DNA of 64,000 nucleotides from an uncultured Pseudomonadota bacterium. GTDB taxonomy: Bacteria > Oederibacteriota > Muellerivitia > Muellerivitales > Muellerivitaceae. Positions 35,762 through 63,946 of this stretch are shown in pieces (within the stretch, counting starts at the first letter, position 1; each line of letters begins with the position of its first letter). The notes below the pieces were generated by a model, which made no database searches, was not told where the DNA came from, and saw only the letters and a program-made list of their open reading frames with translations. The stretch lies in assembly GCA_963836235.1 (NCBI GenBank), contig CAWIIP010000004.1, positions 96,001-160,000 of the forward strand, written 5' to 3'. Both the position numbers and the translations under genes were made by a program.

Positions 35762-35837
35762 GCTGGCGTAGCTCAGTTGGTAGAGCAGCCGCCTTGTAAG
35801 CGGCAGGTCACCGGTCCGATTCCGGTCGCCAGCTCCA
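35762..35837 (+). tRNA. tRNA-Thr(UGU)
   Basis: 76 nt cloverleaf: GCTGGCG/CGCCAGC acceptor stem, anticodon loop CTTGTAA, encoded CCA; T-loop reads TCCGATT. Confidence 0.95.
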
Positions 35838-35999: not shown

Positions 36000-36107
36000 G
36001 GTTTTATTTAATTATTGGTCTTATATGAACTTGCCAACTTTGTGCGGTAGGAATAAAAGTTAAAGGGTCTTTTGTGTTCCAAAAACCTTTTAAGAAGATT
36101 TACCGCC

Positions 36108-37913
36108 ATGGCCTGGAATTTTTTTAAAAAAATTGAGAGCTATACCCCTCCCATATTGGTCGGATTTGGGGTCTATTCGGGCCTCAAATTCACTCTTGAG
36201 GTCTTAGGGGTCATTGGCCTGTCCTTTACCCCTTTTGACACCCTAGCAGCCCTTTCCGTGGGTTTTCTCTACTTGTTTGAGAAGCACGTCCGTATCGACC
36301 ACCTTCTGGCTATTGCACCGGCGGTTATAGCCTTGGCCTTTTGCCACGACTTTTTCGGGGTGTTCCTGGGTAACGAAGGGTTTACGGGTGATGTGGTGAT
36401 GGGCATTTCCATCATCATCGGCTTTTGCTTTTATTTCATTCATTTCTGGATGAGGCATGTCCCAGACCAACAGGGAGAATCACCCAAAGCGGAAGGCGGG
36501 AAATATTCCCTATACCTGGATGCGGAAAATAAATATTTCATTCCTGGGGACTTTCTCAAATACCACACTGAGGTTATCGGATCTTCAGGAATGGGAAAGA
36601 CCAATATTTTCAATTATCTCATTGAGCAGGGAATCAAGAATGGTCTTGGAATGTTTGTGTTCGATGCAAAATCAAATTACAACAAAACCATCCCTTATTA
36701 CGCCGAAAAGCACAAACGGCTTGGTGACCTTAAATACTTTGACTTAGCAGATATCAAAAGAAGCCAGACCTACAACCCAGACTTTAAGGAAAAGGCTGAC
36801 GAGGTTTTTAACGGCCTCATGAAGTCTATTTTCTTCGGGCCGGTGACTCAGGAATTTTACCGGGACCAAGCCGCTGACGTTTTGAGTAACCTAACAAACC
36901 TTCTTTTCCTAGAATTTAAGCATGTAACGCGGATGGATTACCAGAACCTTATATCCAATGAGATCAGGTCATTCGGTACGATCAAGGCTTTGGCAAAGCG
37001 TCACGAGGACACCGTCTCAGGGAAATACTTCTTGGAGAAATGGGTCAATATGTCCGAAAAGGACAGGGAGTTGAACCTATCGGGCCTAACTAGCAAACTT
37101 TCCCGGTTCACTAGCAGGGAATGGTCGCCCCTTATTAATACCTTGCACCCGGATATCCAGATGAAGGATGTAGTTGAGAAAGAGCAGATTTTCCTATTCG
37201 GAACGTCTTCCCTTGTGAACCAAGAAGACTCTAAACCGATCATTATTTCTGCCTTAATCGACTTGGCGGGGGTAATAGGTCGAAGGCTTATCGAGAAGTC
37301 CGATAGGCCTTTTTTCGTATTTTTGGACGAGTTCTATACCGCCGCTTATCCAGGGTTAAATGACCTTATTTCCCTTGGACGGGAGGCTAACGTTTGCTTC
37401 TTTCTGGCCCACCACAGCCTGGGCCAGTTAGGGGCGGTTAGCCAGGAGTTTAAGGACGACATTCTCACCAATACCAACCACAAAATTGTGATGAATATCA
37501 CGGAGAAGGCTACCGTGGATTTCTTCGCATCGATATTCGGAACCAAAGTCACCAAGAAGGACGTTTATTCCTATGACACTCGTATGGCTCAGGCAAGGGG
37601 AAGGACGGAGAAACAAGATGAGGAATTCATCATCCACCCCAATTACTTGCGGGGAATGAAGCGCGGGGAGGCCGTGTGCCGGATTGTTTACGTAACTGGT
37701 CCAAAAGTTTTCAAAATAAAGCTCAAGGAAGTTAAACCCCCGCCAAGGGAGTTTGATTATGTCGGTTGCGTTCCAATTCGTAATAACCATCAAAAGACAA
37801 ATGATTTTAATAAAGTTGAAATCCCCGATGCTCCTAAAAATAAAAAGGAAAAATCAAAAAAAGGGCCGCCGGACCAAGGAAACCTTGAAACCGAATTAAA
37901 GTTGAATAACTAA
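36108..37913 (+). CDS. Type IV coupling protein (TraD/VirD4-like ATPase)
   Basis: N-terminal TMs; Walker A GSSGMGKT; FDAK, TYNP; Walker B FFVFLDEF; GREAN. Confidence 0.85.
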   Translation: MAWNFFKKIESYTPPILVGFGVYSGLKFTLEVLGVIGLSFTPFDTLAALSVGFLYLFEKHVRIDHLLAIAPAVIALAFCHDFFGVFLGNEGFTGDVVMGISIIIGFCFYFIHFWMRHVPDQQGESPKAEGGKYSLYLDAENKYFIPGDFLKYHTEVIGSSGMGKTNIFNYLIEQGIKNGLGMFVFDAKSNYNKTIPYYAEKHKRLGDLKYFDLADIKRSQTYNPDFKEKADEVFNGLMKSIFFGPVTQEFYRDQAADVLSNLTNLLFLEFKHVTRMDYQNLISNEIRSFGTIKALAKRHEDTVSGKYFLEKWVNMSEKDRELNLSGLTSKLSRFTSREWSPLINTLHPDIQMKDVVEKEQIFLFGTSSLVNQEDSKPIIISALIDLAGVIGRRLIEKSDRPFFVFLDEFYTAAYPGLNDLISLGREANVCFFLAHHSLGQLGAVSQEFKDDILTNTNHKIVMNITEKATVDFFASIFGTKVTKKDVYSYDTRMAQARGRTEKQDEEFIIHPNYLRGMKRGEAVCRIVYVTGPKVFKIKLKEVKPPPREFDYVGCVPIRNNHQKTNDFNKVEIPDAPKNKKEKSKKGPPDQGNLETELKLNN

Positions 37914-51510: not shown

Positions 51511-52242
51511 ATGTGTGGACGATACATAATCAGCTCTGATCCCGGTAAGGTTGCCAAGGACTTTAAGGCCGACCCTTACGAGTCCTTTAAGCCCAGCTAC
51601 AATGTCAAGCCGACCCAAAAGGCCCCGATCATTCGCCTGAACCCCGAAACCGGAAAAAGGGAACTGGTCCTGGTCAAATGGGGGATGCCTTTTTTTGACC
51701 TGAAATCCAAGAAATATATTTATAAGCTTATCAACGCCGTGGGCGAGACCATCACCGAGAAAGCGACCTTCAAGAAGCATTTCAGGGAAGACAGATGTTT
51801 GGTTCCTGTAGACGGCTTTTACGAATGGAAGGAAATCTCCAGTAAGTTGAAACAGCCTTACTTCATCGAGTTAAAGGCCAAAGGCACCTTCGCTTTTGCC
51901 GGTATTTGGGGCCGGTGGAACATGACGGTGGACGACGAAGCCACCATCCTCAAAAAGAAAATGGTAAACCCCAATTACGAACCCAAAAAGGAGGAAGTCG
52001 AGACTTTCTCCATTATCACAACCACCCCCAACAAACTGCTGAAAGAAATCCATAACACCAAGCCCCGTATGCCGGTCATCGTCGAAAAAAAGAATTGGGA
52101 TGCTTGGTTGGACCGTTCCTTCCAGGAGGAGGGTTCTTTAAAAGGCTTCTTGCGGTCTTATCCCGATGAGAAAATGCAGGCATGGCCGGTCAAGCCGCTC
52201 TCCGGGGATGATGCTTCGCTTATTGAAAAAGTAAAGATTTAG
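51511..52242 (+). CDS. SOS response-associated peptidase (SRAP/YedK/HMCES family)
   Basis: N-terminal MCGRY, YNVKPTQ, RCLVP.DGFYEW, IH...RMP. Confidence 0.93.
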   Translation: MCGRYIISSDPGKVAKDFKADPYESFKPSYNVKPTQKAPIIRLNPETGKRELVLVKWGMPFFDLKSKKYIYKLINAVGETITEKATFKKHFREDRCLVPVDGFYEWKEISSKLKQPYFIELKAKGTFAFAGIWGRWNMTVDDEATILKKKMVNPNYEPKKEEVETFSIITTTPNKLLKEIHNTKPRMPVIVEKKNWDAWLDRSFQEEGSLKGFLRSYPDEKMQAWPVKPLSGDDASLIEKVKI

Positions 52243-52244
52243 GA

Positions 52245-52451
52245 ATGAAAGACTTTCCTTTTTGGCGCGGGGCGATCTACGCCGCAAAGACAGCTCTTAT
52301 TTTAAAAACCGTTGGGGAGGATCTTTCAAATTTCCAAGCCCAATCCGGGCTTTTTGGCGACGAGGAGAAGAAGCTGACCGACGAACAAGTGGCTGTCCTG
52401 CGCACGCAATACTCTGAAAAGATGAAAAAACTTATCGCGGAGAGGATTTGA
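52245..52451 (+). CDS. Hypothetical small protein
   Basis: 68 aa ORF tightly packed between SRAP and next gene. Confidence 0.45.
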   Translation: MKDFPFWRGAIYAAKTALILKTVGEDLSNFQAQSGLFGDEEKKLTDEQVAVLRTQYSEKMKKLIAERI

Positions 52452-52930
52452 AAATGAAAAATATTAATTCTCTATCTACTTTGCAAATCGGGGCGCTTGG
52501 TGTGTTACTAACCCAATTTGAGCTTCTTAAGGAGGGAATTGAATCCGCGCATCTTACTACTGATGCCGGTATTGACCTTGTGGCCTATTCGCCAAAAAAA
52601 GTTAAACCAGTTACCATTCAGGTAAAAGCTAATTTAAAACCCAAACCAGGTGGCGGCAAAGGCCCGAATTCAGTTGATTGGACTGTTCCAGGTGATTCGC
52701 CAGCCGAATTGTTCTCCTTTGTCGATGTTTCGGAAAGACGGGTTTGGCTAGTTACAAAAAATGAAATAGAAAGGGTGGCTCAACAACACCCGAAAAGTGG
52801 GAAGCACCATTTATATATGTACGTTGTGGACCCGGCCAAACTTAAAGGAAAAATTGGTATCGCTTCCCACGTTTCTAATTTTGATAAATACCGCCTTGAA
52901 AAAAGAATTAAAGAGCTTTTTTTTACTTAA
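52448..52930 (+). CDS. PD-(D/E)XK-family nuclease-like protein
   Basis: GIDLVAY ... TIQVKA motif. Confidence 0.6.
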   Translation: MKMKNINSLSTLQIGALGVLLTQFELLKEGIESAHLTTDAGIDLVAYSPKKVKPVTIQVKANLKPKPGGGKGPNSVDWTVPGDSPAELFSFVDVSERRVWLVTKNEIERVAQQHPKSGKHHLYMYVVDPAKLKGKIGIASHVSNFDKYRLEKRIKELFFT

Positions 52931-52987
52931 AAAATTCTTCAATTCCCTGAAAATTCTCTCATTTCAAATTTACTAACTCATTAAAAC

Positions 52988-53029
52988 TTGACCTTTACGA
53001 AAGGCGGAAGGTATACAAGAGTATACCTT
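52988..53029 (+). promoter_or_regulatory. umuDC promoter with perfect palindromic operator (candidate SOS box)
   Basis: TTGACC -35 at 52988; AAGGTATAC-AAGA-GTATACCTT at 53008-53029. Confidence 0.7.
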
Positions 53030-53054
53030 TACCCTATTTCGCAAGGATATTGTC

Positions 53055-53522
53055 ATGCGCGCTCACTTTCTAGGACCCATCGATAAACACAAAGATATTC
53101 TCCTCGACCTGATAGACCCGCCCATTCATGCCGGGGCACCCGGCCCCCCGGAAGAGTACCGGCGAAAGAGGGTGGATCTCAACAAGCTCCTCATGGACAA
53201 CATGGACGCCACTTTTCTTTGGTTTGCCGAAGGGGAATCCATGATCGATATCGGCATCCGAACCGACGACCTTTTGGTGATTGATCGTTCCTTGGACGCG
53301 GTGGATGGGGACATTGTGGTGGCTGGCTTCAACGGGGACAACACCGTGAAACGGCTTTCCGTGAACAAGGAAAAAGTCTTTTTGCTTCCCGAAAATTCCA
53401 ATTACCAACCCATCCCCATCAACCCCGAGGAAGGCGTCACCATTTGGGGCGTGGTCATCCTTGTCATTCACCCCTTGAGGAAGTCCTATGAACTCCGTCG
53501 TCGCCTTAATCGATTGCAATAA
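53055..53522 (+). CDS. umuD: UmuD-like S24 peptidase
   Basis: AG cleavage site (HAG.P.P), GESM, TVKRL catalytic Ser/Lys. Confidence 0.88.
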   Translation: MRAHFLGPIDKHKDILLDLIDPPIHAGAPGPPEEYRRKRVDLNKLLMDNMDATFLWFAEGESMIDIGIRTDDLLVIDRSLDAVDGDIVVAGFNGDNTVKRLSVNKEKVFLLPENSNYQPIPINPEEGVTIWGVVILVIHPLRKSYELRRRLNRLQ

Positions 53523-54759
53523 CTACTACGTCAGTTGCGAGAGGCTGTTTAACCTCAGGCTACGCGATAGGCCGGTGGTGGTCTTGTCCAACAACGACGG
53601 CATTATTATTTCCCGCTCGAACGAGGCCAAGGCCTTGGGGATCAAGATGGGCTCCCCCTTATTCGAGGTTAGGGAAGCGGTCGAGAGGCTGGGGATCATT
53701 GTCATCTCCTCAAATTACCCCTTCTACTTCGACATGTGCGACCGGGTGCGGGGCGTCTTGGCCCGGTTCACCCCGCTCCTGGATAAATACTCCATAGACG
53801 AGTGCTTTCTTGACCTCTCCGGCATACCTGCCCACGAGCTGGACGGTTATGGGCGCTTGATAAAAAAGACGGTTGAGAAATGGACGGGGATACCGGTCAC
53901 CGTGGGGATCGCCGAGACGAAATGCCTCGCCAAGGTCGCCAATAAGATCGCCAAGAAATCGAAGAGGGCCAAGGGAGTCCTGAACCTTTACCAATCCCCC
54001 CACATGGAGAGGGCGTTGGGGATGACCGACGTGGGGAGCCTTTGGGGAGTTGGGCCGGCCTACGAGAACGCCTTGAAGGGGGTGGGGATCAAGACGGCCC
54101 TGGATTTCGTCAGGGCCGAGGAACATTGGGTGAGGAAAAAAATGACGGTGGTGGGGTCCAGGATACAGATGGAACTCAAGGGCTTCCCTTGCATTCCGCT
54201 GGAATGGATTCCTCCCTCTAAGGAGCAGATGGGTATCGCGCAGGGTTTCGGGGTGCTGGTGGAGACCTTGGAGGAAATGCGGGAGGCCGCGGCCTTCAAG
54301 GGCTCGGAAATGGCGGCCAAGGCGAGAAGGGAAAAGAAGGCCATCAAGGAAATGACCGTCTGGATTCAGACCAACCCTTTCAGCGACGGCCCCAGCCACG
54401 AGGATTCGGAACCTATCGTTTTTCCGGTGGCCACCCAGGACACGGCCACTCTCATCCGGGCGGTGGAGGGGCCGGTGTCCCGGCTTTACAAACCCGGTTT
54501 CGGCTACAAGCGCATCGGGGTTTGGGCGAAAAAACTTGAGGGCGAGGATTGCGTCCAGGGCCACCTCTGGGTCAACCCGGACCGGGAGAAAAAACCCAAG
54601 CTCCTTAAGTGTATGGACCAGATCAACCGGGACTTTGGGCCGGGCACCCTGCGCATGGCCTCGGTGGTACGGAACCCAAGGTGGCCCACCCGGTTCGACC
54701 ACCAAAGCCCGGCCTACACGACGGACCCGATGGGGATTCCAAGGGCCAGGGTGAAATAA
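53488..54759 (+). CDS. umuC: Y-family DNA polymerase V subunit
   Basis: LIDCNNYYVSCER, VVLSNNDG, YSIDE, C-terminal SPAYTT. Confidence 0.93.
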   Translation: MNSVVALIDCNNYYVSCERLFNLRLRDRPVVVLSNNDGIIISRSNEAKALGIKMGSPLFEVREAVERLGIIVISSNYPFYFDMCDRVRGVLARFTPLLDKYSIDECFLDLSGIPAHELDGYGRLIKKTVEKWTGIPVTVGIAETKCLAKVANKIAKKSKRAKGVLNLYQSPHMERALGMTDVGSLWGVGPAYENALKGVGIKTALDFVRAEEHWVRKKMTVVGSRIQMELKGFPCIPLEWIPPSKEQMGIAQGFGVLVETLEEMREAAAFKGSEMAAKARREKKAIKEMTVWIQTNPFSDGPSHEDSEPIVFPVATQDTATLIRAVEGPVSRLYKPGFGYKRIGVWAKKLEGEDCVQGHLWVNPDREKKPKLLKCMDQINRDFGPGTLRMASVVRNPRWPTRFDHQSPAYTTDPMGIPRARVK

Positions 54760-58489: not shown

Positions 58490-58767
58490 CGCGGGTTTAA
58501 AAATAGATTTTTAAGCTCCGAGGGCTTCACCCCGAACATATAAAGAATTGATTCGTTATTTCTCTGAAACCAGATGGCTTTCTTCCCCCCATTCCTGCCG
58601 GGGGTAGATTAAAGTCAGTTAGGGAAGGGCTCACGCAGTGAATATTAACCACTTCAAGAGTGGCTAACCTGGGAATTTCACAATTATGAAAGGTCCTTGG
58701 CCAACTAGACCCTATTGCCTTTTCTGATTATCAAAACATTAACTGTATAATGACCCTTAATTAAATC

Positions 58768-59727
58768 ATGCCCCACGACCTCGAACGAAAACTTGTCCTG
58801 CTTACCTTATTGGCTTCCAGCCGATATCCTTTGACGCGCGCCGAGATATTCAAAAAACTCCCGTCCTATTATGGCGACCCTAAACGCAAAGCCGATTCAG
58901 CCAAAAAAATGTTCGAGCGGGATAAGGCGGAATTATCGGATGCAGGGTATGAACTTCTAGCAGAACCCATGGAAAGCGGGGATTTTAAGTATCGTCTTAA
59001 CAAGCCAACTGATTTTTTAGACCGAAATTTCCTTCTAACCCAAGAACAAGCTCAAACACTCAACAAAAGCCTAAACGACCCAGTTTTCAGAGGTCAACTT
59101 CCGGGAGTGGCCCTGCTGTCCCTGGCGAAACTGCTCACATTCCATGCTCCTTTCCTAGCAGGGGCTAAAACCCCAAAGGTCGGCCTCGACAAAGAAAGCC
59201 ACACTCTCCATTTCGCCCTTCGGGCGACGCAGGAAGAAAGAGCCATCGACGTGGAATATCCCTCGAAAGAAGGAAAGATGGAACGAAGGATATTCAGCCC
59301 CTATGGCGTATTTACCCAATCGGGAGCTGGTTATCTGACGGCCTGGTGCCATCGGGAAGAAATTCCCAAAGTCCTGGCTCTTTACAAAATCGGACGAATC
59401 GGTTTTTCTCCGGAATCCTACCACCCCAAACCAGATGGCCTTTCTATCGAACGGGATTATGCCTTCACCAATAAATGGGTCAAAGATGAAGCCAGAGGTC
59501 AAAGGGTCATCCTGCGGGTGGATAAAAGAAAAGCCAAACAAATACAGGAACAACACAAGTATTCACTACTCGACATTAAAAAAGACGGGTCTGTTCTGGC
59601 TGAATTTTGGGTGACCAACCCCAAGAGGTTCTTCCGCTTTGTCCTCCAGTTTGGACGTTACGCTCAAATCTTGGAGCCGCTGGAAACCTATAAAGCCTTT
59701 TCGGCTTTTCTGAAGGCCATTTCATGA
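58768..59727 (+). CDS. WYL-domain transcriptional regulator, PafB-like
   Basis: HTH KKMFERDKAEL (cf. PafB RMFERDK.EL); R...PYG....GYL.AWC..R; C-terminal WCX-like Q.LEP. Confidence 0.82.
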   Translation: MPHDLERKLVLLTLLASSRYPLTRAEIFKKLPSYYGDPKRKADSAKKMFERDKAELSDAGYELLAEPMESGDFKYRLNKPTDFLDRNFLLTQEQAQTLNKSLNDPVFRGQLPGVALLSLAKLLTFHAPFLAGAKTPKVGLDKESHTLHFALRATQEERAIDVEYPSKEGKMERRIFSPYGVFTQSGAGYLTAWCHREEIPKVLALYKIGRIGFSPESYHPKPDGLSIERDYAFTNKWVKDEARGQRVILRVDKRKAKQIQEQHKYSLLDIKKDGSVLAEFWVTNPKRFFRFVLQFGRYAQILEPLETYKAFSAFLKAIS

Positions 59728-60701
59728 AAAAGAAAGCCTCTCGTCTTGAATGGTCCATCTCTAGGCTCATTGCACTCTTTGCCGGTTTAAAAAACCCCAT
59801 GACTTTGGAACAATTGGAAAAAAGATTCGGAGTCCGTTATCCAGATTTGATGTTCCTGGAAAAACACTTTTTGGGCCAGTCCGAAGAAATGAGTTCCACC
59901 GGTGACTTTGGTTTTCGCCTTGACATGCAAAAACTCAAGAACGGTCAAACCCTGGTCACCCCGATTGTGCCTACGGTTTTAGAAAGGGCGGTGGGGGTCT
60001 CCAATTCCGAGGCCCAATTGGCGTTGGCGGCTTTAACTTATATTGAGGTTCCCGAACCTCGCCGAAAGATATTAAAGGAAATCGAAACGGATTTAAGCGA
60101 AGCCTTGAAAAAGGTTAAAAACCCAACCAATATCCCATTTTTGTTTTCCCGCCAAAGCCCGCCTTTTCTGGACCCCGAGGGGTTGAAGGTTGCCCAAGGG
60201 GTTCAAGAAGAAACCGAGTTGGAATTCAACTATGAAGGGGCCAACAAATTCGAACGGAAAGTGCAACCTTTAAGCCTACGGAATGACGATGGGGTTTGGC
60301 GGCTTCTGGCTTGGGATTTGGATCGGCAAGGTCTTAGGATATTCAAACTATCCAATATCCAGAAGGTGGTTCCAGGAAAGGGGTTTAAATGGCCGACACA
60401 ACTCGACAAAGCCAAAATCCGCGCCACAGATTTAAGTGTTTACCAACCCAATGGGAAAGAACAAAAGGTGGTCCTTCAAATTCGTAATCCCACACTGGAA
60501 AGGTATCGAAGCTTTTTTCCGAATGTTCGGATCAATAAGAAGGACAATGGTTGGAAAAAAATTTCCATGGTCAGCCAAGACCCGCAGTGGGCCGCAAGAC
60601 TATTTTTACCTGGCCTGGGGGATGTCAAAATCCTTGGGCCGGCGGAGTTTAAGACGGCCTGGTTGGAAGAGATCAAAGCGGTAAAAGCCCTCTACCCCTA
60701 A
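59724..60701 (+). CDS. WYL-domain protein, PafC-like
   Basis: R.VQP..L....G.WRLLAWD..R...R.FKL..I; KILGP.E; overlaps PafB-like stop. Confidence 0.8.
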   Translation: MKKKASRLEWSISRLIALFAGLKNPMTLEQLEKRFGVRYPDLMFLEKHFLGQSEEMSSTGDFGFRLDMQKLKNGQTLVTPIVPTVLERAVGVSNSEAQLALAALTYIEVPEPRRKILKEIETDLSEALKKVKNPTNIPFLFSRQSPPFLDPEGLKVAQGVQEETELEFNYEGANKFERKVQPLSLRNDDGVWRLLAWDLDRQGLRIFKLSNIQKVVPGKGFKWPTQLDKAKIRATDLSVYQPNGKEQKVVLQIRNPTLERYRSFFPNVRINKKDNGWKKISMVSQDPQWAARLFLPGLGDVKILGPAEFKTAWLEEIKAVKALYP

Positions 60702-60790
60702 TTTAACTTTCTTCGGAAATCCTCAAATAACTTCAAAAACTAGCCATGTCCGTGGCGTCTTTCATGATCTCTCTTAAATCAGGGGGGGAC

Positions 60791-61732
60791 ATGAACATCA
60801 AAATTATCGGAATTGGCGGCGGGGGTTGTAACGCCCTTAACTATTTAATTCGTTCCAGGAAACTGAAAGCGGATTTTATCGCCATCAATTCCGACTATCG
60901 CTCCTTACGTCGTTCTAAAGCCAAAAAGAAACTTATCTTAAGCCCTAATTTATTGAACGGTTATGGAGCAGGAGGCAACCCAGATTTGGCTCAACAGGCC
61001 GCATGGCAAAGCGCACAAGCCATTCTAGGCTTGTTTAAAAAACCGGATTGGGTCTGCATCCTGGCGGGATTAGGTGGGGGTACGGGCACTGGAGCGGCCC
61101 CGGTGGTTGCCCAAATTGCCCGGGATGCGGGCATTCAAGTGGCTTCGGTTGTCACCCTTCCCTTTAGACATGAAGGGCCTATTCGCCACGCCCAAGCCCA
61201 AGAAGGTATGGAACTTTTGAAATCCCATTGTGATATCGTCTTGAAATTTTCAAATGACCAATTGAATCTCTTTGTTGACCGCGAGGGGTTGGACCTAAGA
61301 GAAGCCTTTGCCTTAATGGACGAGTGGTTTTCAAGGGCGGCCATGGCGGTGGGAGATCTATTACTCTATCGGCGTATTTTAGGACCTAAGCCTAGTGAGT
61401 GGAAAACCATTTTAGGAAAAGGAAGAAGCCTTTGGGTCGGGACGGGGTCTGCTTCTGGAAACTCGAGGTTTTTAAAAGTCTGTGAAGAGGCAATCCGATA
61501 TCCGATTGTGGAAGAAGTACAACTTTCCAAAGCGAAGAAATGGTACCCCTTGGTGGTGTGCCGAAGCATCACTCTTGGACAGTTCAACGCTATCAATGGT
61601 CATCTTTTAGCTAGAGTGCCTAAAGGGGTTAAGATCATCCCCGGAATTGCTTACGACAAAACTATGAAAAAGGACCAATTGCGTTTATCCCTTTGGGCAT
61701 CAGCGCCGCCAGAGAAGCACAAAAAACTTTGA
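60791..61732 (+). CDS. Divergent FtsZ-family protein lacking T7-loop catalytic motif and C-terminal tail
   Basis: IKIIGIGGGGCNA, GAGGNP, GLGGGTGTGAAP, TLPF..EG, NDQL; NxDFAD replaced by GPKPSEW. Confidence 0.85.
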   Translation: MNIKIIGIGGGGCNALNYLIRSRKLKADFIAINSDYRSLRRSKAKKKLILSPNLLNGYGAGGNPDLAQQAAWQSAQAILGLFKKPDWVCILAGLGGGTGTGAAPVVAQIARDAGIQVASVVTLPFRHEGPIRHAQAQEGMELLKSHCDIVLKFSNDQLNLFVDREGLDLREAFALMDEWFSRAAMAVGDLLLYRRILGPKPSEWKTILGKGRSLWVGTGSASGNSRFLKVCEEAIRYPIVEEVQLSKAKKWYPLVVCRSITLGQFNAINGHLLARVPKGVKIIPGIAYDKTMKKDQLRLSLWASAPPEKHKKL

Positions 61733-61774: not shown

Positions 61775-62242
61775 TTGAAAATGTGGGATGCAAAAGAATC
61801 GGATGAAATGATATTTGATAAATTATTGCGCACTGGACAAAAGGTGAGGACCTTGGAATGGGTCCTAGATGAAGTCGGAAAGAGACCATGGAGCACAGAA
61901 TTGAGGGCTTTGGCAGCTTTTGGATCGCTAACTTTAAGGTTTGATAAGGCGGCTAGGTCATTTGCAAAAACGGTTCTCTCCACCAATCGTTATAATAAAT
62001 GGGCCTTGACTGTCATGTTCGCATACACCCCAAATTCGACCATTGAGGAAATGCCGGAATTTTTTTACAGCAAAGGTTTTTATTTGGACTCTCTTTTGTA
62101 CTTACGCTTGAACCGACTAGGGTTAAAAGCCCCGGCCAGAAGACTTTGGGGTTTCATTGCCCGGTATGGACCAGAAGTGGAAAAGTGGTATTTGTTAAAA
62201 TCCGAGTTTGGGGTGGACAGGCGAGGTGGGCTAAATAGCTGA
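61775..62242 (+). CDS. Hypothetical protein
   Basis: 155 aa ORF after AGGAGG RBS. Confidence 0.55.
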   Translation: MKMWDAKESDEMIFDKLLRTGQKVRTLEWVLDEVGKRPWSTELRALAAFGSLTLRFDKAARSFAKTVLSTNRYNKWALTVMFAYTPNSTIEEMPEFFYSKGFYLDSLLYLRLNRLGLKAPARRLWGFIARYGPEVEKWYLLKSEFGVDRRGGLNS

Positions 62243-62296: not shown

Positions 62297-63946
62297 ATGG
62301 GAACCCAGATAAATAATTATAATCTTAAAGACCTCATTAAATTTATTGAGTCAAAAAATGTTGCCGTTCCCGAATTCCAAAGAGGTTTTGTTTGGAGGAC
62401 TAAACAAGTTAAAGCCCTCTTTGATAGTCTTGTAAAAAATTACCCTGTCGGGAGTTTTATTATTTGGAGGACTAAAAAGCAAATTGAGGCCCGTCCGTTA
62501 AGTGGGGATAAACTTCCTAGTTTGAAATATTTGATCCTTGATGGACAACAACGAATGACGAGTATTTACTATTTATACCGGCAAAAAAAATTTAAGGAAT
62601 CAATAAAAGATAGATTTCACGAAACCTGTGAAAACCCCGAGAGAAACCTAATAGATTTTGAAAAATTCGAGATATCCAAAAATGGTGGTGATCAGTCCTT
62701 GGAATACACCAGAGATGGTGACTGCAAGATTGATTATCGAAAATTATTAAGCCGCGTTAAAAAAAGTTACAAATTTCCAGTGGTCGTAATCTCTCTAGAT
62801 GATTATCGTCAGGCCATAGAGGTTTTTGAGAGAATAAACCAAGCTGGAACTAGGATTTCTACTGAGTCTATTTTCTTGTCTGAAACATGGAACAGTCGAT
62901 CCAACATCGGAAAAATTTTAAGGACTAGAAAAAAGAAAAAAACTGGTTCTCTGACAAGAAAAATTGACACTGTTATATTTATACATGTTTTCGCTATCGT
63001 CCTTCAAATTAATAAGTCGAATTCCACGAACTCTAGAATAGAAATAAATATTGGAACACTTAAAAAAATTGCTGATGAAGTAAGAAAAGATAAAAGAGGA
63101 AAATATAAACGGACTTTTGAAGATTGTATTGAATCTGTAGGGCGCGCTTTGCGATTTCTAACTGAGGAATACCGGATAGTCAATGTTAGAGAACTTCCCT
63201 CACAAACAATGATTACGGTTTTGAGTATATTTTTTTATTTTGAAAAATCAGCGACCAGTTTTCAAAAAAAAGAATTGAGGAAATGGTATTGGAGATCGTC
63301 TCTAAGGAATCAATATATTGGGGCTGGATATACCAAAAACATTAATGATGATGCGAAGGCCATGAAGCTGCTTGCCTTAAAAAATATAAAATTAAACATT
63401 CCAAAAGCTTCTCTTTGGAAATTTAACAAAATAGTTGAAGACGGGGATATAAGGTCCGGCAGATCAACCTACCGAAATATTTTCAAACAGGCTCTATGGC
63501 AACAGAACCCCGTATTTATTGACGGCGAGCCAGTCAGCCGAGAGGATAAGGAGACTGAACAACACAAGCCAGAAGATGACCACTTTTTTCCCTACTATTT
63601 GCATAAACGGAGGATGGCCGGTAGTGAAATCAACAATATTTTAAATATTCATTTTTTGAATAGGGATGAGAACAGAACTAAAACCAAAAAATTACCATCT
63701 GAATGGTTGGAAGAAAGGATCGAAAAGGAAAAACCGGACCAAAAGGCCATAGAAAAATATTTTAAAAGTGAACTTTTGCCTTTTAAAACGTTAGGGGAGT
63801 TAAAAAGGTATGAACGTCCATTTATGTTAAAAACCCCAAAAGCTGTTCAAAAACAATTTGAAAAAAATTATGAACGTTTTTTGCGAAAGAGATATGAACT
63901 TTTTCAAAAGGCTTTAATTCGATTACAAGATGGGAAGCAAAAATAG
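62297..63946 (+). CDS. DUF262 + HNH-like nuclease (GmrSD-like type IV restriction/defence protein)
   Basis: PEFQRGFVW, DGQQR, F.RIN..G; C-terminal DH.FP...N...L....N..K; AT-rich. Confidence 0.85.
   Translation: MGTQINNYNLKDLIKFIESKNVAVPEFQRGFVWRTKQVKALFDSLVKNYPVGSFIIWRTKKQIEARPLSGDKLPSLKYLILDGQQRMTSIYYLYRQKKFKESIKDRFHETCENPERNLIDFEKFEISKNGGDQSLEYTRDGDCKIDYRKLLSRVKKSYKFPVVVISLDDYRQAIEVFERINQAGTRISTESIFLSETWNSRSNIGKILRTRKKKKTGSLTRKIDTVIFIHVFAIVLQINKSNSTNSRIEINIGTLKKIADEVRKDKRGKYKRTFEDCIESVGRALRFLTEEYRIVNVRELPSQTMITVLSIFFYFEKSATSFQKKELRKWYWRSSLRNQYIGAGYTKNINDDAKAMKLLALKNIKLNIPKASLWKFNKIVEDGDIRSGRSTYRNIFKQALWQQNPVFIDGEPVSREDKETEQHKPEDDHFFPYYLHKRRMAGSEINNILNIHFLNRDENRTKTKKLPSEWLEERIEKEKPDQKAIEKYFKSELLPFKTLGELKRYERPFMLKTPKAVQKQFEKNYERFLRKRYELFQKALIRLQDGKQK

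Follow-up and report, generated by a model that had tools for sequence, protein, structure and literature searches.

To our knowledge, none of the bacterial division brakes described so far (SulA, MciZ, DidA, AciT, Kil and others) is related to FtsZ, all of them being small proteins. The gene considered here, referred to as FtsZl, lies in a 64,000 nucleotide (nt) stretch of the genome of an uncultured bacterium (the window, from position 96,001 of contig C4) and encodes an FtsZ homologue which keeps the GTP-binding motifs of FtsZ and has lost its catalytic T7 loop and its tail. It is carried by an integrative conjugative element (ICE), behind a tandem pair of WYL regulators. We judge the chances to be about even that FtsZl is a dominant-negative poison of the host Z-ring, induced by single-stranded DNA (ssDNA) or DNA damage, and it is from its anatomy that we infer binding to FtsZ and an effect on division.

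SulA, DidA and AciT follow the same logic as that proposed for FtsZl, a division brake being placed directly behind a regulator that responds to damage or ssDNA. For DidA, which targets late divisome proteins rather than FtsZ, and for AciT this regulator is a WYL protein, as is proposed for FtsZl. All three differ in being small proteins that are not FtsZ-related and have no homology to FtsZl which, if the proposal is true, is an inhibitor made from its own target. FtsZl has neither the fold nor the sequence of SulA; its fold is that of FtsZ, and a SulA-like action is possible. The WYL regulator DriD is described as sensing ssDNA and activating the division inhibitor gene didA (PMC9186387), and the WYL activator DdaA as driving the division inhibitor AciT, whose mechanism is given as unknown (PMC13010146). 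Neither an FtsZ-derived bacterial inhibitor nor a link between WYL proteins and FtsZ was found in the open-access literature searched.

Within the FtsZ filament, the active site on the GTP of a lower subunit is completed by the T7 loop that the subunit above contributes, and Staphylococcus aureus FtsZ mutated at N208, D210 or D213 (N208L, D210N, D213N) fails to assemble (PMC8936486). Mutations of the bottom face are toxic and block division, and it is the growing end of the filament that exposes T7 (PMC8936486). The D212A/G mutations of Escherichia coli FtsZ nearly abolish the Z-ring's dynamics (its assembly and disassembly) and treadmilling (10.1101/077610). Such engineered mutants are like FtsZl in that the top face is intact and the T7 loop or bottom face is defective, but they were made in the laboratory by point mutation and retain the tail, whereas FtsZl is natural, separately encoded and, as proposed here, regulated, with the whole loop replaced and with new conserved residues.

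ARC3 of plant chloroplasts, which is not known to have the GTP-binding motifs, also differs from FtsZl in being a eukaryotic, multi-domain (MORN) protein of the Min system that is neither mobile nor damage-regulated. The FtsZ-like protein of Nitrosopumilus maritimus is, like FtsZl, an FtsZ homologue without the NVDFAD T7 loop, and it does not polymerise (PMC3684127). That protein is chromosomal and has lost the GTP-binding signature, whereas FtsZl keeps GGGTGTG.

The FtsZl gene and protein

The host genome (G000; 3.97 Mb, 5 contigs, 99.4% complete) contains two Tubulin-family genes. Contig C2 carries a normal ftsZ, encoding 386 amino acids (aa) with a linker and the C-terminal peptide DIPAYLRRRL, and ending DIPAYLRRRLASKPFQN; FtsZl is thus a second FtsZ in addition to a tailed one. 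The features of the gene are as follows.

60791..61732, + strand: FtsZl, a 313 aa FtsZ paralogue, predicted to be competent for GTP binding, with a degenerate T7 loop and without a tail
60781..60788, + strand: G-rich Shine-Dalgarno sequence of FtsZl (GGGGGGGA), read from the sequence, 3 nt before ATG 60791
61370..61402, + strand: rewritten T7 loop RRILGPKPSEW, residues 194-204, from the alignment to solved FtsZ and from the clade alignment

The open reading frame (ORF) is intact. Homologues of FtsZl all begin MN[IMV]K at the position that matches ATG 60791, while an alternative ATG, at 60746, borders the promoter motif (60747-60768) on its upstream side and comes before the predicted transcription start; these observations, together with the Shine-Dalgarno sequence, place the start at 60791. 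The poly-G tract at 60781, in the ribosome-binding site, has one extra G in single low-depth contigs of two metagenome runs, which may be homopolymer length variation or sequencing error.

FtsZl matches the Pfam Tubulin/FtsZ GTPase family (PF00091) at 1.8e-37. The match to FtsZ_C (PF12327), at 25.6 bits, is slightly below the cut-off of 27, and the fold of this C-terminal (GTPase-activating) domain is present in the structural model when superposed on solved FtsZ. The AlphaFold2 (AF2) model, from a 72-row alignment, has a pLDDT of 91.7 and a pTM of 0.89; its top Foldseek matches are all FtsZ, with TM scores of 0.78-0.85 over ~305 columns. By sequence, too, the closest solved structures are FtsZ (1e-49, residues 3-303), with CetZ and TubZ far behind. 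Against the TIGR00065 ftsZ equivalog, FtsZl scores 206.8 bits, below the cut-off of 295.2, and host FtsZ 382.1. There is no match in FtsZl at E<=0.01 to PF13809 (Tubulin_2), described as the FtsZ-like family of Makarova & Koonin (PMC2875224, PMC9871819).

A preliminary description of the gene had the GTP-binding motifs retained and both the catalytic loop and the tail missing. All three motifs are present in the translation, with GGGGCN at residues 9-14, GGGTGTG at 95-101 and PF..EG, as PFRHEG, at 124-129. Opposite the T7 loop of Klebsiella/E. coli FtsZ (GLMNVDFADVRT), the HMMER alignment places RILGPKPSEWKT of FtsZl, where the N-x-D-x-x-D synergy loop reads G-x-K-x-x-E (N207 to G, D209 to K and D212 to E in E. 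coli numbering). This segment is identical to that of host FtsZ at 1 of 11 positions. The loss of the canonical N/D residues is therefore borne out, but the loop is rewritten rather than blank, as E203 is acidic at the D212 position, where E is found in six of the seven members of the FtsZl clade described below. A lysine at the catalytic acidic position of T7, as in FtsZl, is also carried by beta-tubulin. The absence of a tail was read correctly: the chain stops at residue 313, 8-10 residues past the last core strand (RLSLWASAPPEKHKKL), without the linker and C-terminal peptide that host FtsZ, which goes on for ~65 more residues, possesses.

Conservation within the FtsZl clade

Among 5.8 billion protein clusters, there are 5 proteins (P0002-P0006; 310-323 aa) that are closer to FtsZl than canonical FtsZ is, with 78, 61, 50, 47 and 46% identity, respectively. 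A profile search of 1.84 billion representatives added one further member, P0124 (309 aa). The clade, taken as these seven proteins including FtsZl, is very rare, at seven sequences among about 15 billion proteins. All seven ORFs are intact, at 309-323 aa and 40-78% identical to FtsZl.

The profile search also returned P0121, P0122, P0123 and P0125 (731-840 aa), in which two complete FtsZ domains are in tandem in one polypeptide. These outscore P0124, their scores being summed over the two domains. Both T7 loops of P0122 are degenerate (GLVGLNLSELK, SLVNLTLGELQ).

Searches of nucleotide sequences did not extend the clade. The clade alignment found no related loci in viral contigs, nor did the single FtsZl protein in genome contigs. 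With the clade alignment against metagenome and genome contigs, only canonical FtsZ loci were seen among the best 80 of 266 and the best 80 of 586, and the best partial match among them (L082) is a normal ftsZ of a dcw cluster. All that a plasmid tblastn search gave, in 114 records, was ftsZ of canonical or rhizobial type at <=34% identity.

The tail is absent and the T7 loop degenerate in all seven clade members. Six of them align in the T7 region, which reads N.DF.E in P0006, T.DL.E in P0004 and P0005, and G.K..E in FtsZl, P0002 and P0003; P0124 is off register, with QPKSPWSE. E203-W204-K205, W215 and W302 do not vary among the six aligned members, and the sequence of P0124 shows the same three tryptophans (the equivalents of W204, W215 and W302). 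Of the nucleotide-binding apparatus, G1, T4, PF.xEG..R, N155 and D148 are kept in six or seven of the seven. Also kept are the residues that are partners for a T7 loop, D35 (S. aureus D46) in 6/7 and R132 (S. aureus R143) in 7/7; the roles of D46 and R143 opposite the T7 loop of the partner subunit are described in S. aureus FtsZ (PMC8936486).

When the 89 columns conserved at >=85% in 65 canonical FtsZ were scored in the clade, 45 were kept, 21 partly kept and 23 lost. The N-terminal GTPase domain keeps 35/57 of its canonical columns. In T7 and H8 none of the 7 is kept and 6 are lost, a concentration of losses that is not chance. Conservation in T1, T4, T5 and H4 is 0.74-0.78 within the clade against 0.59-0.83 among canonical FtsZ, while for the T7 segment it is 0.31 against 0.58. 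This pattern points to selection for nucleotide binding and not for activation of hydrolysis in a neighbouring subunit, and it is not that of a pseudogene. Seven intact members with invariant GTP-binding motifs indicate that FtsZl is under selection and is not a decaying copy.

Origin of FtsZl

FtsZl is 40% identical to host FtsZ, 36-41% to FtsZ of the host's family and 35-36% to the best FtsZ of other phyla. Sequence strings common to FtsZl and host-family FtsZ include GGGGCN, Y[KR]SLRRSKA, HEGP.R.AQA, FN.ING.L and IIPGI. The comparison of FtsZl with host FtsZ by phylogeny, which had been proposed as a check, was made with maximum likelihood trees (LG+C20+F+G4). A careful tree of 49 rows supports the FtsZl clade at 100/99 and places it inside bacterial FtsZ, as sister to FtsZ of families f1 and f2, of the host's order (UFBoot/SH-aLRT 100/97). 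The placement is the same in a quick tree of 69 rows (SH-aLRT 96) and when the two longest rows are left out (97).

At 2.0 substitutions per site, the stem of the clade is roughly 9-fold longer than that of its sister (0.23), and the clade rows are flagged for long branches and odd amino-acid composition. The placement is therefore strong but not beyond artefact. Since the clade is sister to host-order FtsZ on a long stem, FtsZl is probably a captured ftsZ from the host's own order that has been remodelled by fast evolution. The two share the two-domain fold, the GTP-binding motifs and the lineage signatures; they differ in that FtsZl is 40% identical, with T7 rewritten and neither linker nor C-terminal peptide, and is on an ICE and not at the chromosomal ftsZ locus.

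No clade member is present in the 98 other genomes of the phylum, making FtsZl a feature of 1/99. A genome of the host's family, G070, has on contig C37 (L196:1509-2108) a 199 aa FtsZ-like ORF with only the N-terminal GTPase domain, adjoining an OmpA-like gene. This ORF ends in helix H7, without the T7 loop or C-terminal domain, and carries the host-lineage signatures. It could be another top-face-only derivative of FtsZ or a truncated remnant.

The WYL pair and the putative promoter of FtsZl

Upstream and downstream of FtsZl are the following features.

58768..59727, + strand: WYL1, a PafB-like WYL-WCX regulator with an N-terminal helix-turn-helix (HTH)-like region (Pfam WYL 4.4e-9, WCX 4.2e-8)
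59724..60701, + strand: WYL2, a PafC-like WYL-WCX regulator (Pfam WYL 2.8e-12; WCX 20.6 bits, below the cut-off of 23.9)
60747..60768, + strand: match to a PafBC-type hybrid promoter, TGTCCG-N10-CATGAT (-26 element and -10), 22 nt upstream of the FtsZl start
61781..62242, + strand: orf153, a small all-alpha TPR-like protein, with AGGAGG 6 nt before ATG 61781

WYL1 and WYL2, which overlap by 4 nt, resemble PafBC of the actinobacteria in being tandem paralogous WYL-WCX genes with N-terminal HTH regions, in the promoter match and in the PafB recognition helix. No Pfam HTH model matched in either protein, and the HTH is taken from the alignment with PafB. They differ from PafBC in that the matches are weak (5e-7, 2.9e-6) and in their location on a conjugative element of another phylum, with no link to a proteasome locus. 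The best PDB match of WYL1 is the Mycobacterium smegmatis PafB-like chain 7p5x_AY, from the complex of RNA polymerase with PafBC (5e-7, residues 5-258). The recognition-helix stretch MFERDK.EL.D.G is common to WYL1 and PafB, with K47/R51 at the positions of PafB R46/R50, which are described as reading the GTC triplet (PMC8635444). The best PDB matches of WYL2 are PafBC 6sj9 (2.9e-6) and then CapW 9c5g (7.8e-4), and only 3 homologues of it were found in the search of 5.8 billion clusters. WYL1 is presumed to be the DNA-reading half of a heterodimer with WYL2. PafBC is described as being triggered by ssDNA (PMC11804915). Before WYL1, at 58744-58751, is a sigma-70-like extended -10 (TGTATAAT), to which low weight is given.

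The promoter match is within the 89 nt spacer between WYL2 and FtsZl. The in vivo PafBC consensus is given as tGTCgg(N10)tA(N3)T, which combines a -26 element, read by PafB R46/R50, with a canonical -10 and lacks a -35 (PMC8635444). There is a single match to TGTCNGTG-N8-NANNNT in the window, with 0.27 expected and at least one match in 24 of 100 shuffles. Stronger evidence than this count is the conservation of the motif after WYL2. Homologues of WYL2 are present in 6/98 other genomes of the phylum, and the best four loci were compared (G054, G044, G070 and G058). In G054 and G044 (WYL2 49% identical), TGTCTG-N10-TATCCT follows WYL2 at the same spacing; the two spacers are identical and count once. 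In G070 (WYL2 35% identical), it is TGTCCG-N10-TACCAT, again at the same spacing, in otherwise diverged sequence, while no promoter motif was found after WYL2 in G058. The match between regulator and promoter is made of weak protein similarity and a short motif conserved in three independent sequences. The control of FtsZl by the WYL pair, as put forward in the preliminary description, is supported by this PafBC-type motif between WYL2 and the gene.

A genome-wide PafBC-like regulon was considered and rejected, the loose pattern giving 50 matches against 49 in the control. The extended motif has 4 matches genome-wide against 0 in the control, two of which are inside mutS and fliG and chance-like. 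Beyond the end of the window, at G000:C4:163504-163525 (L003:5504-5525), a second copy of the extended motif is present as TGTCCGTGCC-N6-TAAGGT, 151 nt upstream of a patatin/CD-NTase CBASS operon. The WYL pair may also drive this operon of the element, acting like CapW.

The preliminary description had looked to a conserved WYL-WYL-FtsZ neighbourhood, which is not what is found: 3/4 of the related WYL pairs are accompanied by an orf153-like gene and not by FtsZl. Directly behind the motif in G054 and G044 comes an orf153-like gene (27% identity, E ~1e-10). G070 has an orf153-like gene downstream (30% identity, 2e-11), followed by a 79% identical nuclease-helicase gene and a CoiA-like gene, as in G000. 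In the host genome FtsZl is between the motif and orf153, and the short spacer between FtsZl and orf153 aligns with the G054 leader AAAAAGGGAGGGTTT. The conserved module is therefore WYL-WYL-promoter-orf153, in which orf153 is the ancestral first gene behind the promoter. Since the motif directly precedes the orf153-like gene in the relatives, FtsZl is an insert in the 5' leader of orf153, thereby inheriting its control.

GC content at third codon positions is 0.46-0.52 for WYL1, WYL2, FtsZl and orf153, 0.70-0.73 for the flank with ArdC and RadC, and 0.32 for GmrSD; there is no terminator-like site between FtsZl and GmrSD. One homologue of orf153 was found (P0278, 63% identity). The AF2 model of orf153 has nine helices (pLDDT 70.5), and the protein gives weak TPR matches only, no Foldseek match at E<=0.001 and an Atlas recognition score below the reliability mark. 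A toxin-antitoxin pairing of FtsZl with orf153 was rejected, as the orf153-like gene is without FtsZl in G054, G044 and G070. The WYL2 homologue P0275 (73%) and the FtsZl homologue P0003 (61%) are both in 2 contigs (longest 6419 nt), which is a hint, though no proof, of the same arrangement of WYL and FtsZl elsewhere.

The conjugative element and its cargo

The element is bounded by repeats of a tRNA gene, and the window holds its first part.

35762..35837, + strand: tRNA-Thr(TGT), the 3' 50 nt of which is attL of the element (ARAGORN; exact repeats)
36072-37913: type IV coupling protein (T4CP)
62297..63946, + strand: GmrSD-type nuclease, neighbouring cargo outside the WYL module (Pfam GmrSD_N 4.9e-31)

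Contig C4 has the 3' 50 nt of tRNA-Thr in three exact copies, at 131815-131837 (35815-35837 of the window), 197235-197257 and 245939-245961. This means two elements integrated in tandem, of 65.4 kb and 48.7 kb. The first, which holds FtsZl and extends beyond the end of the window to G000:C4:197257, is an ICE with a large defence cargo. That FtsZl is encoded by a mobile element, as had been supposed, is evident from the direct repeats at tRNA-Thr, the integrase, the T4CP and the type IV secretion system genes.

The element begins with the T4CP, AraC, hemerythrin, AhpC and PIN genes, followed by SRAP, UmuD/UmuC, ArdC and RadC. Then come the WYL pair, FtsZl and orf153; GmrSD and a nuclease-helicase of 1141 aa; the patatin/CD-NTase CBASS; a DUF499/DUF1156-methylase/SNF2 set; HamA with a helicase; TrbL/VirB6 and VirB4-like genes; and a tyrosine integrase beside the second repeat. 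The SRAP (YedK-like) gene and umuD-umuC, at 51511-54759, just upstream of ArdC-RadC, give this part of the cargo a DNA-damage theme. A dense defence cargo, comprising GmrSD, CBASS, the DUF499/DUF1156-methylase/SNF2-helicase set and Hachiman (HamA and helicase), occupies loci L003 and L004 (G000:C4:158001-198000), the region in which a GGDEF-TPR protein is encoded near the integrase.

The 1141 aa protein (L003:2001-5426 in G000, L211:4149-7460 in G070; 79% identical) has PD-(D/E)XK, RNase-H-like and SF1-helicase regions. It is downstream of the orf153-like gene in both genomes and seems to belong to a conserved backbone that the WYL-controlled promoter precedes. In G070, no GmrSD gene stands between orf175 and the helicase-nuclease. 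From PADLOC-DB 2.0, 0 families match FtsZl or orf155, while the WYL genes match generic WYL models and GmrSD matches several models.

Proposed function and alternative explanations

In the mechanism proposed here, the element would have captured an ftsZ of the host's order and the copy would have come to lie behind a PafBC-type promoter served by the element's WYL pair. On the model of PafBC, DriD and DdaA, this pair would switch the promoter on when ssDNA accumulates, be it through DNA damage, conjugative transfer or phage attack. The induced FtsZl would bind GTP and present to a host FtsZ subunit a nucleotide (top) face that is canonical. It would add to host filaments via this GTP face because the residues of a lower subunit are kept and those of an upper subunit are lost. 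Its own T7 loop could not activate GTP hydrolysis in a subunit below, and it has no tail for anchors of the FtsA/SepF type. Co-assembly would then lead to capping of filaments or, if the host-like H10 and S9 still dock, to interfaces that are hydrolysis-dead and untethered. Treadmilling would stop, and division would be delayed until the signal fades.

The one to benefit might be the cell, for which this would be a checkpoint, the element, if a donor or recipient is held while it transfers, or defence, through an arrest of growth upon infection. More tentatively, and with less than even confidence, the element may have turned a host division protein into a regulated weapon, expressed by a PafBC-like ssDNA sensor and acting through a capped or non-hydrolysing heterotypic interface. 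It is possible, with the same restraint, to see in this weapon a SulA-type checkpoint evolved from FtsZ itself and travelling horizontally.

Several observations weigh against poisoning of the Z-ring. E. coli D212A/G are viable as the sole FtsZ (10.1101/077610), and loss of catalysis alone is therefore no proof of poisoning. The predicted complex of host FtsZ 10-322 with FtsZl and 2 GTP, run without controls, has a median score of 0.25 against a mark of 0.32; this gives no computed support for FtsZl binding host FtsZ, but counts neither for nor against it. At 40% identity co-assembly is not assured, and in P0004, P0005 and P0124 the T3 loop is badly preserved. The WYL pair and promoter exist without FtsZl in three of the four related loci, so this regulator was not built for FtsZl. 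H10 and S9, on the bottom face, keep host-like residues at 8/19 and 9/18 positions; these and the invariant W204, W215 and W302 may reflect a new selected function of the bottom face rather than none. Metagenome read pieces over the locus, from four DNA runs, are 150-370 nt long, at low depth and mostly >=99% alike, and the population variants of FtsZl among them are two, both non-synonymous (Q137H, N224K), too few to judge selection or dN/dS.

The bottom face is also where an accessory co-polymer finds its evidence, an FtsZl that enters or coats host Z-rings, or builds mixed filaments, and alters them to some end of the element or the cell without blocking division, in the manner of the FtsZ paralogues without tails that magnetotactic bacteria and rhizobia have. 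Descent from host FtsZ, the host-like residues kept in H10 and S9 and the conserved new residues E203, W204, K205, W215 and W302 would all fit such a role, and the viable D212 mutants show that a hydrolysis-poor FtsZ still works in rings. We regard this as unlikely given that FtsZl, with no anchoring tail, is very rare and patchy (one genome in 99) and sits with defence and anti-restriction cargo on a conjugative element, behind a damage-type promoter.

It is similarly doubtful that FtsZl is a decoy or guard, soaking up or sensing phage inhibitors of FtsZ so as to protect division or to trigger neighbouring defence. An island rich in defence (GmrSD, helicase-nuclease, CBASS, Hachiman) is a suitable setting for one, the extended motif upstream of the CBASS operon would allow the two to be co-regulated, and without T7 loop and tail FtsZl would be harmless to the host. 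However, the footprint of MciZ (4u39) is on the bottom/T7 face (PMC8936486), which is the face rewritten in FtsZl. SulA (1ofu) is also among the FtsZ-inhibitor structures in the Foldseek matches, and the known footprints are on this same face; FtsZl also has no match to a PADLOC model.

Filaments that do not hydrolyse GTP could instead assemble from FtsZl itself, as a static cytoskeleton of the element that positions or partitions its excised form or the transfer machinery, like TubZ or PhuZ. Encoding by a mobile element, the retained GTP-binding motifs and new bottom-face residues that could preserve a homotypic contact are compatible with this, yet it has little probability. FtsZl nests in bacterial FtsZ and is not closer to TubZ or PhuZ, matching TubZ/RepX 4ei7 at 1.6e-4 against 1e-49 for FtsZ, and a PhuZ PHROG at 6.6e-6 over residues 2-121 only. 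There is no TubR-like adaptor or centromere-binding partner adjacent to it, and related elements are without FtsZl.

A role outside the cytoskeleton, as a GTP-binding subunit that senses nucleotide for a regulator with orf153 or the helicase-nuclease, is improbable. FtsZl is co-oriented and likely co-transcribed with orf153, and its GTP pocket is as constrained as in canonical FtsZ while its polymer interface has changed, but orf153 and the helicase-nuclease are without FtsZl in G070, as is the orf153-like gene in G054 and G044, and there is no precedent in the open-access literature searched. That FtsZl is a functionless passenger heading to decay, as the very long stem branch, the lower conservation of the T7 segment in the clade and the non-synonymous variants might suggest, is the least credible given seven intact ORFs, all GTP-binding motifs and clade-specific invariant residues kept, a good Shine-Dalgarno sequence and a promoter.

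Implications

Being so rare, the family is of limited general importance unless it has more divergent analogues. Sigma adaptation of the PafBC kind has so far been described in actinobacteria; the promoter match suggests that it also operates on conjugative elements of a distant uncultured phylum, where it may couple the sensing of ssDNA to division control and CBASS. If the poisoning of the Z-ring proposed here is true, a mobile-borne inhibitor derived from FtsZ would be a natural bottom-face capper, with which models of filament polarity and treadmilling, so far probed with engineered mutants, could be tested. It would also mean that mobile elements can capture and repurpose a cytoskeletal gene of their host.

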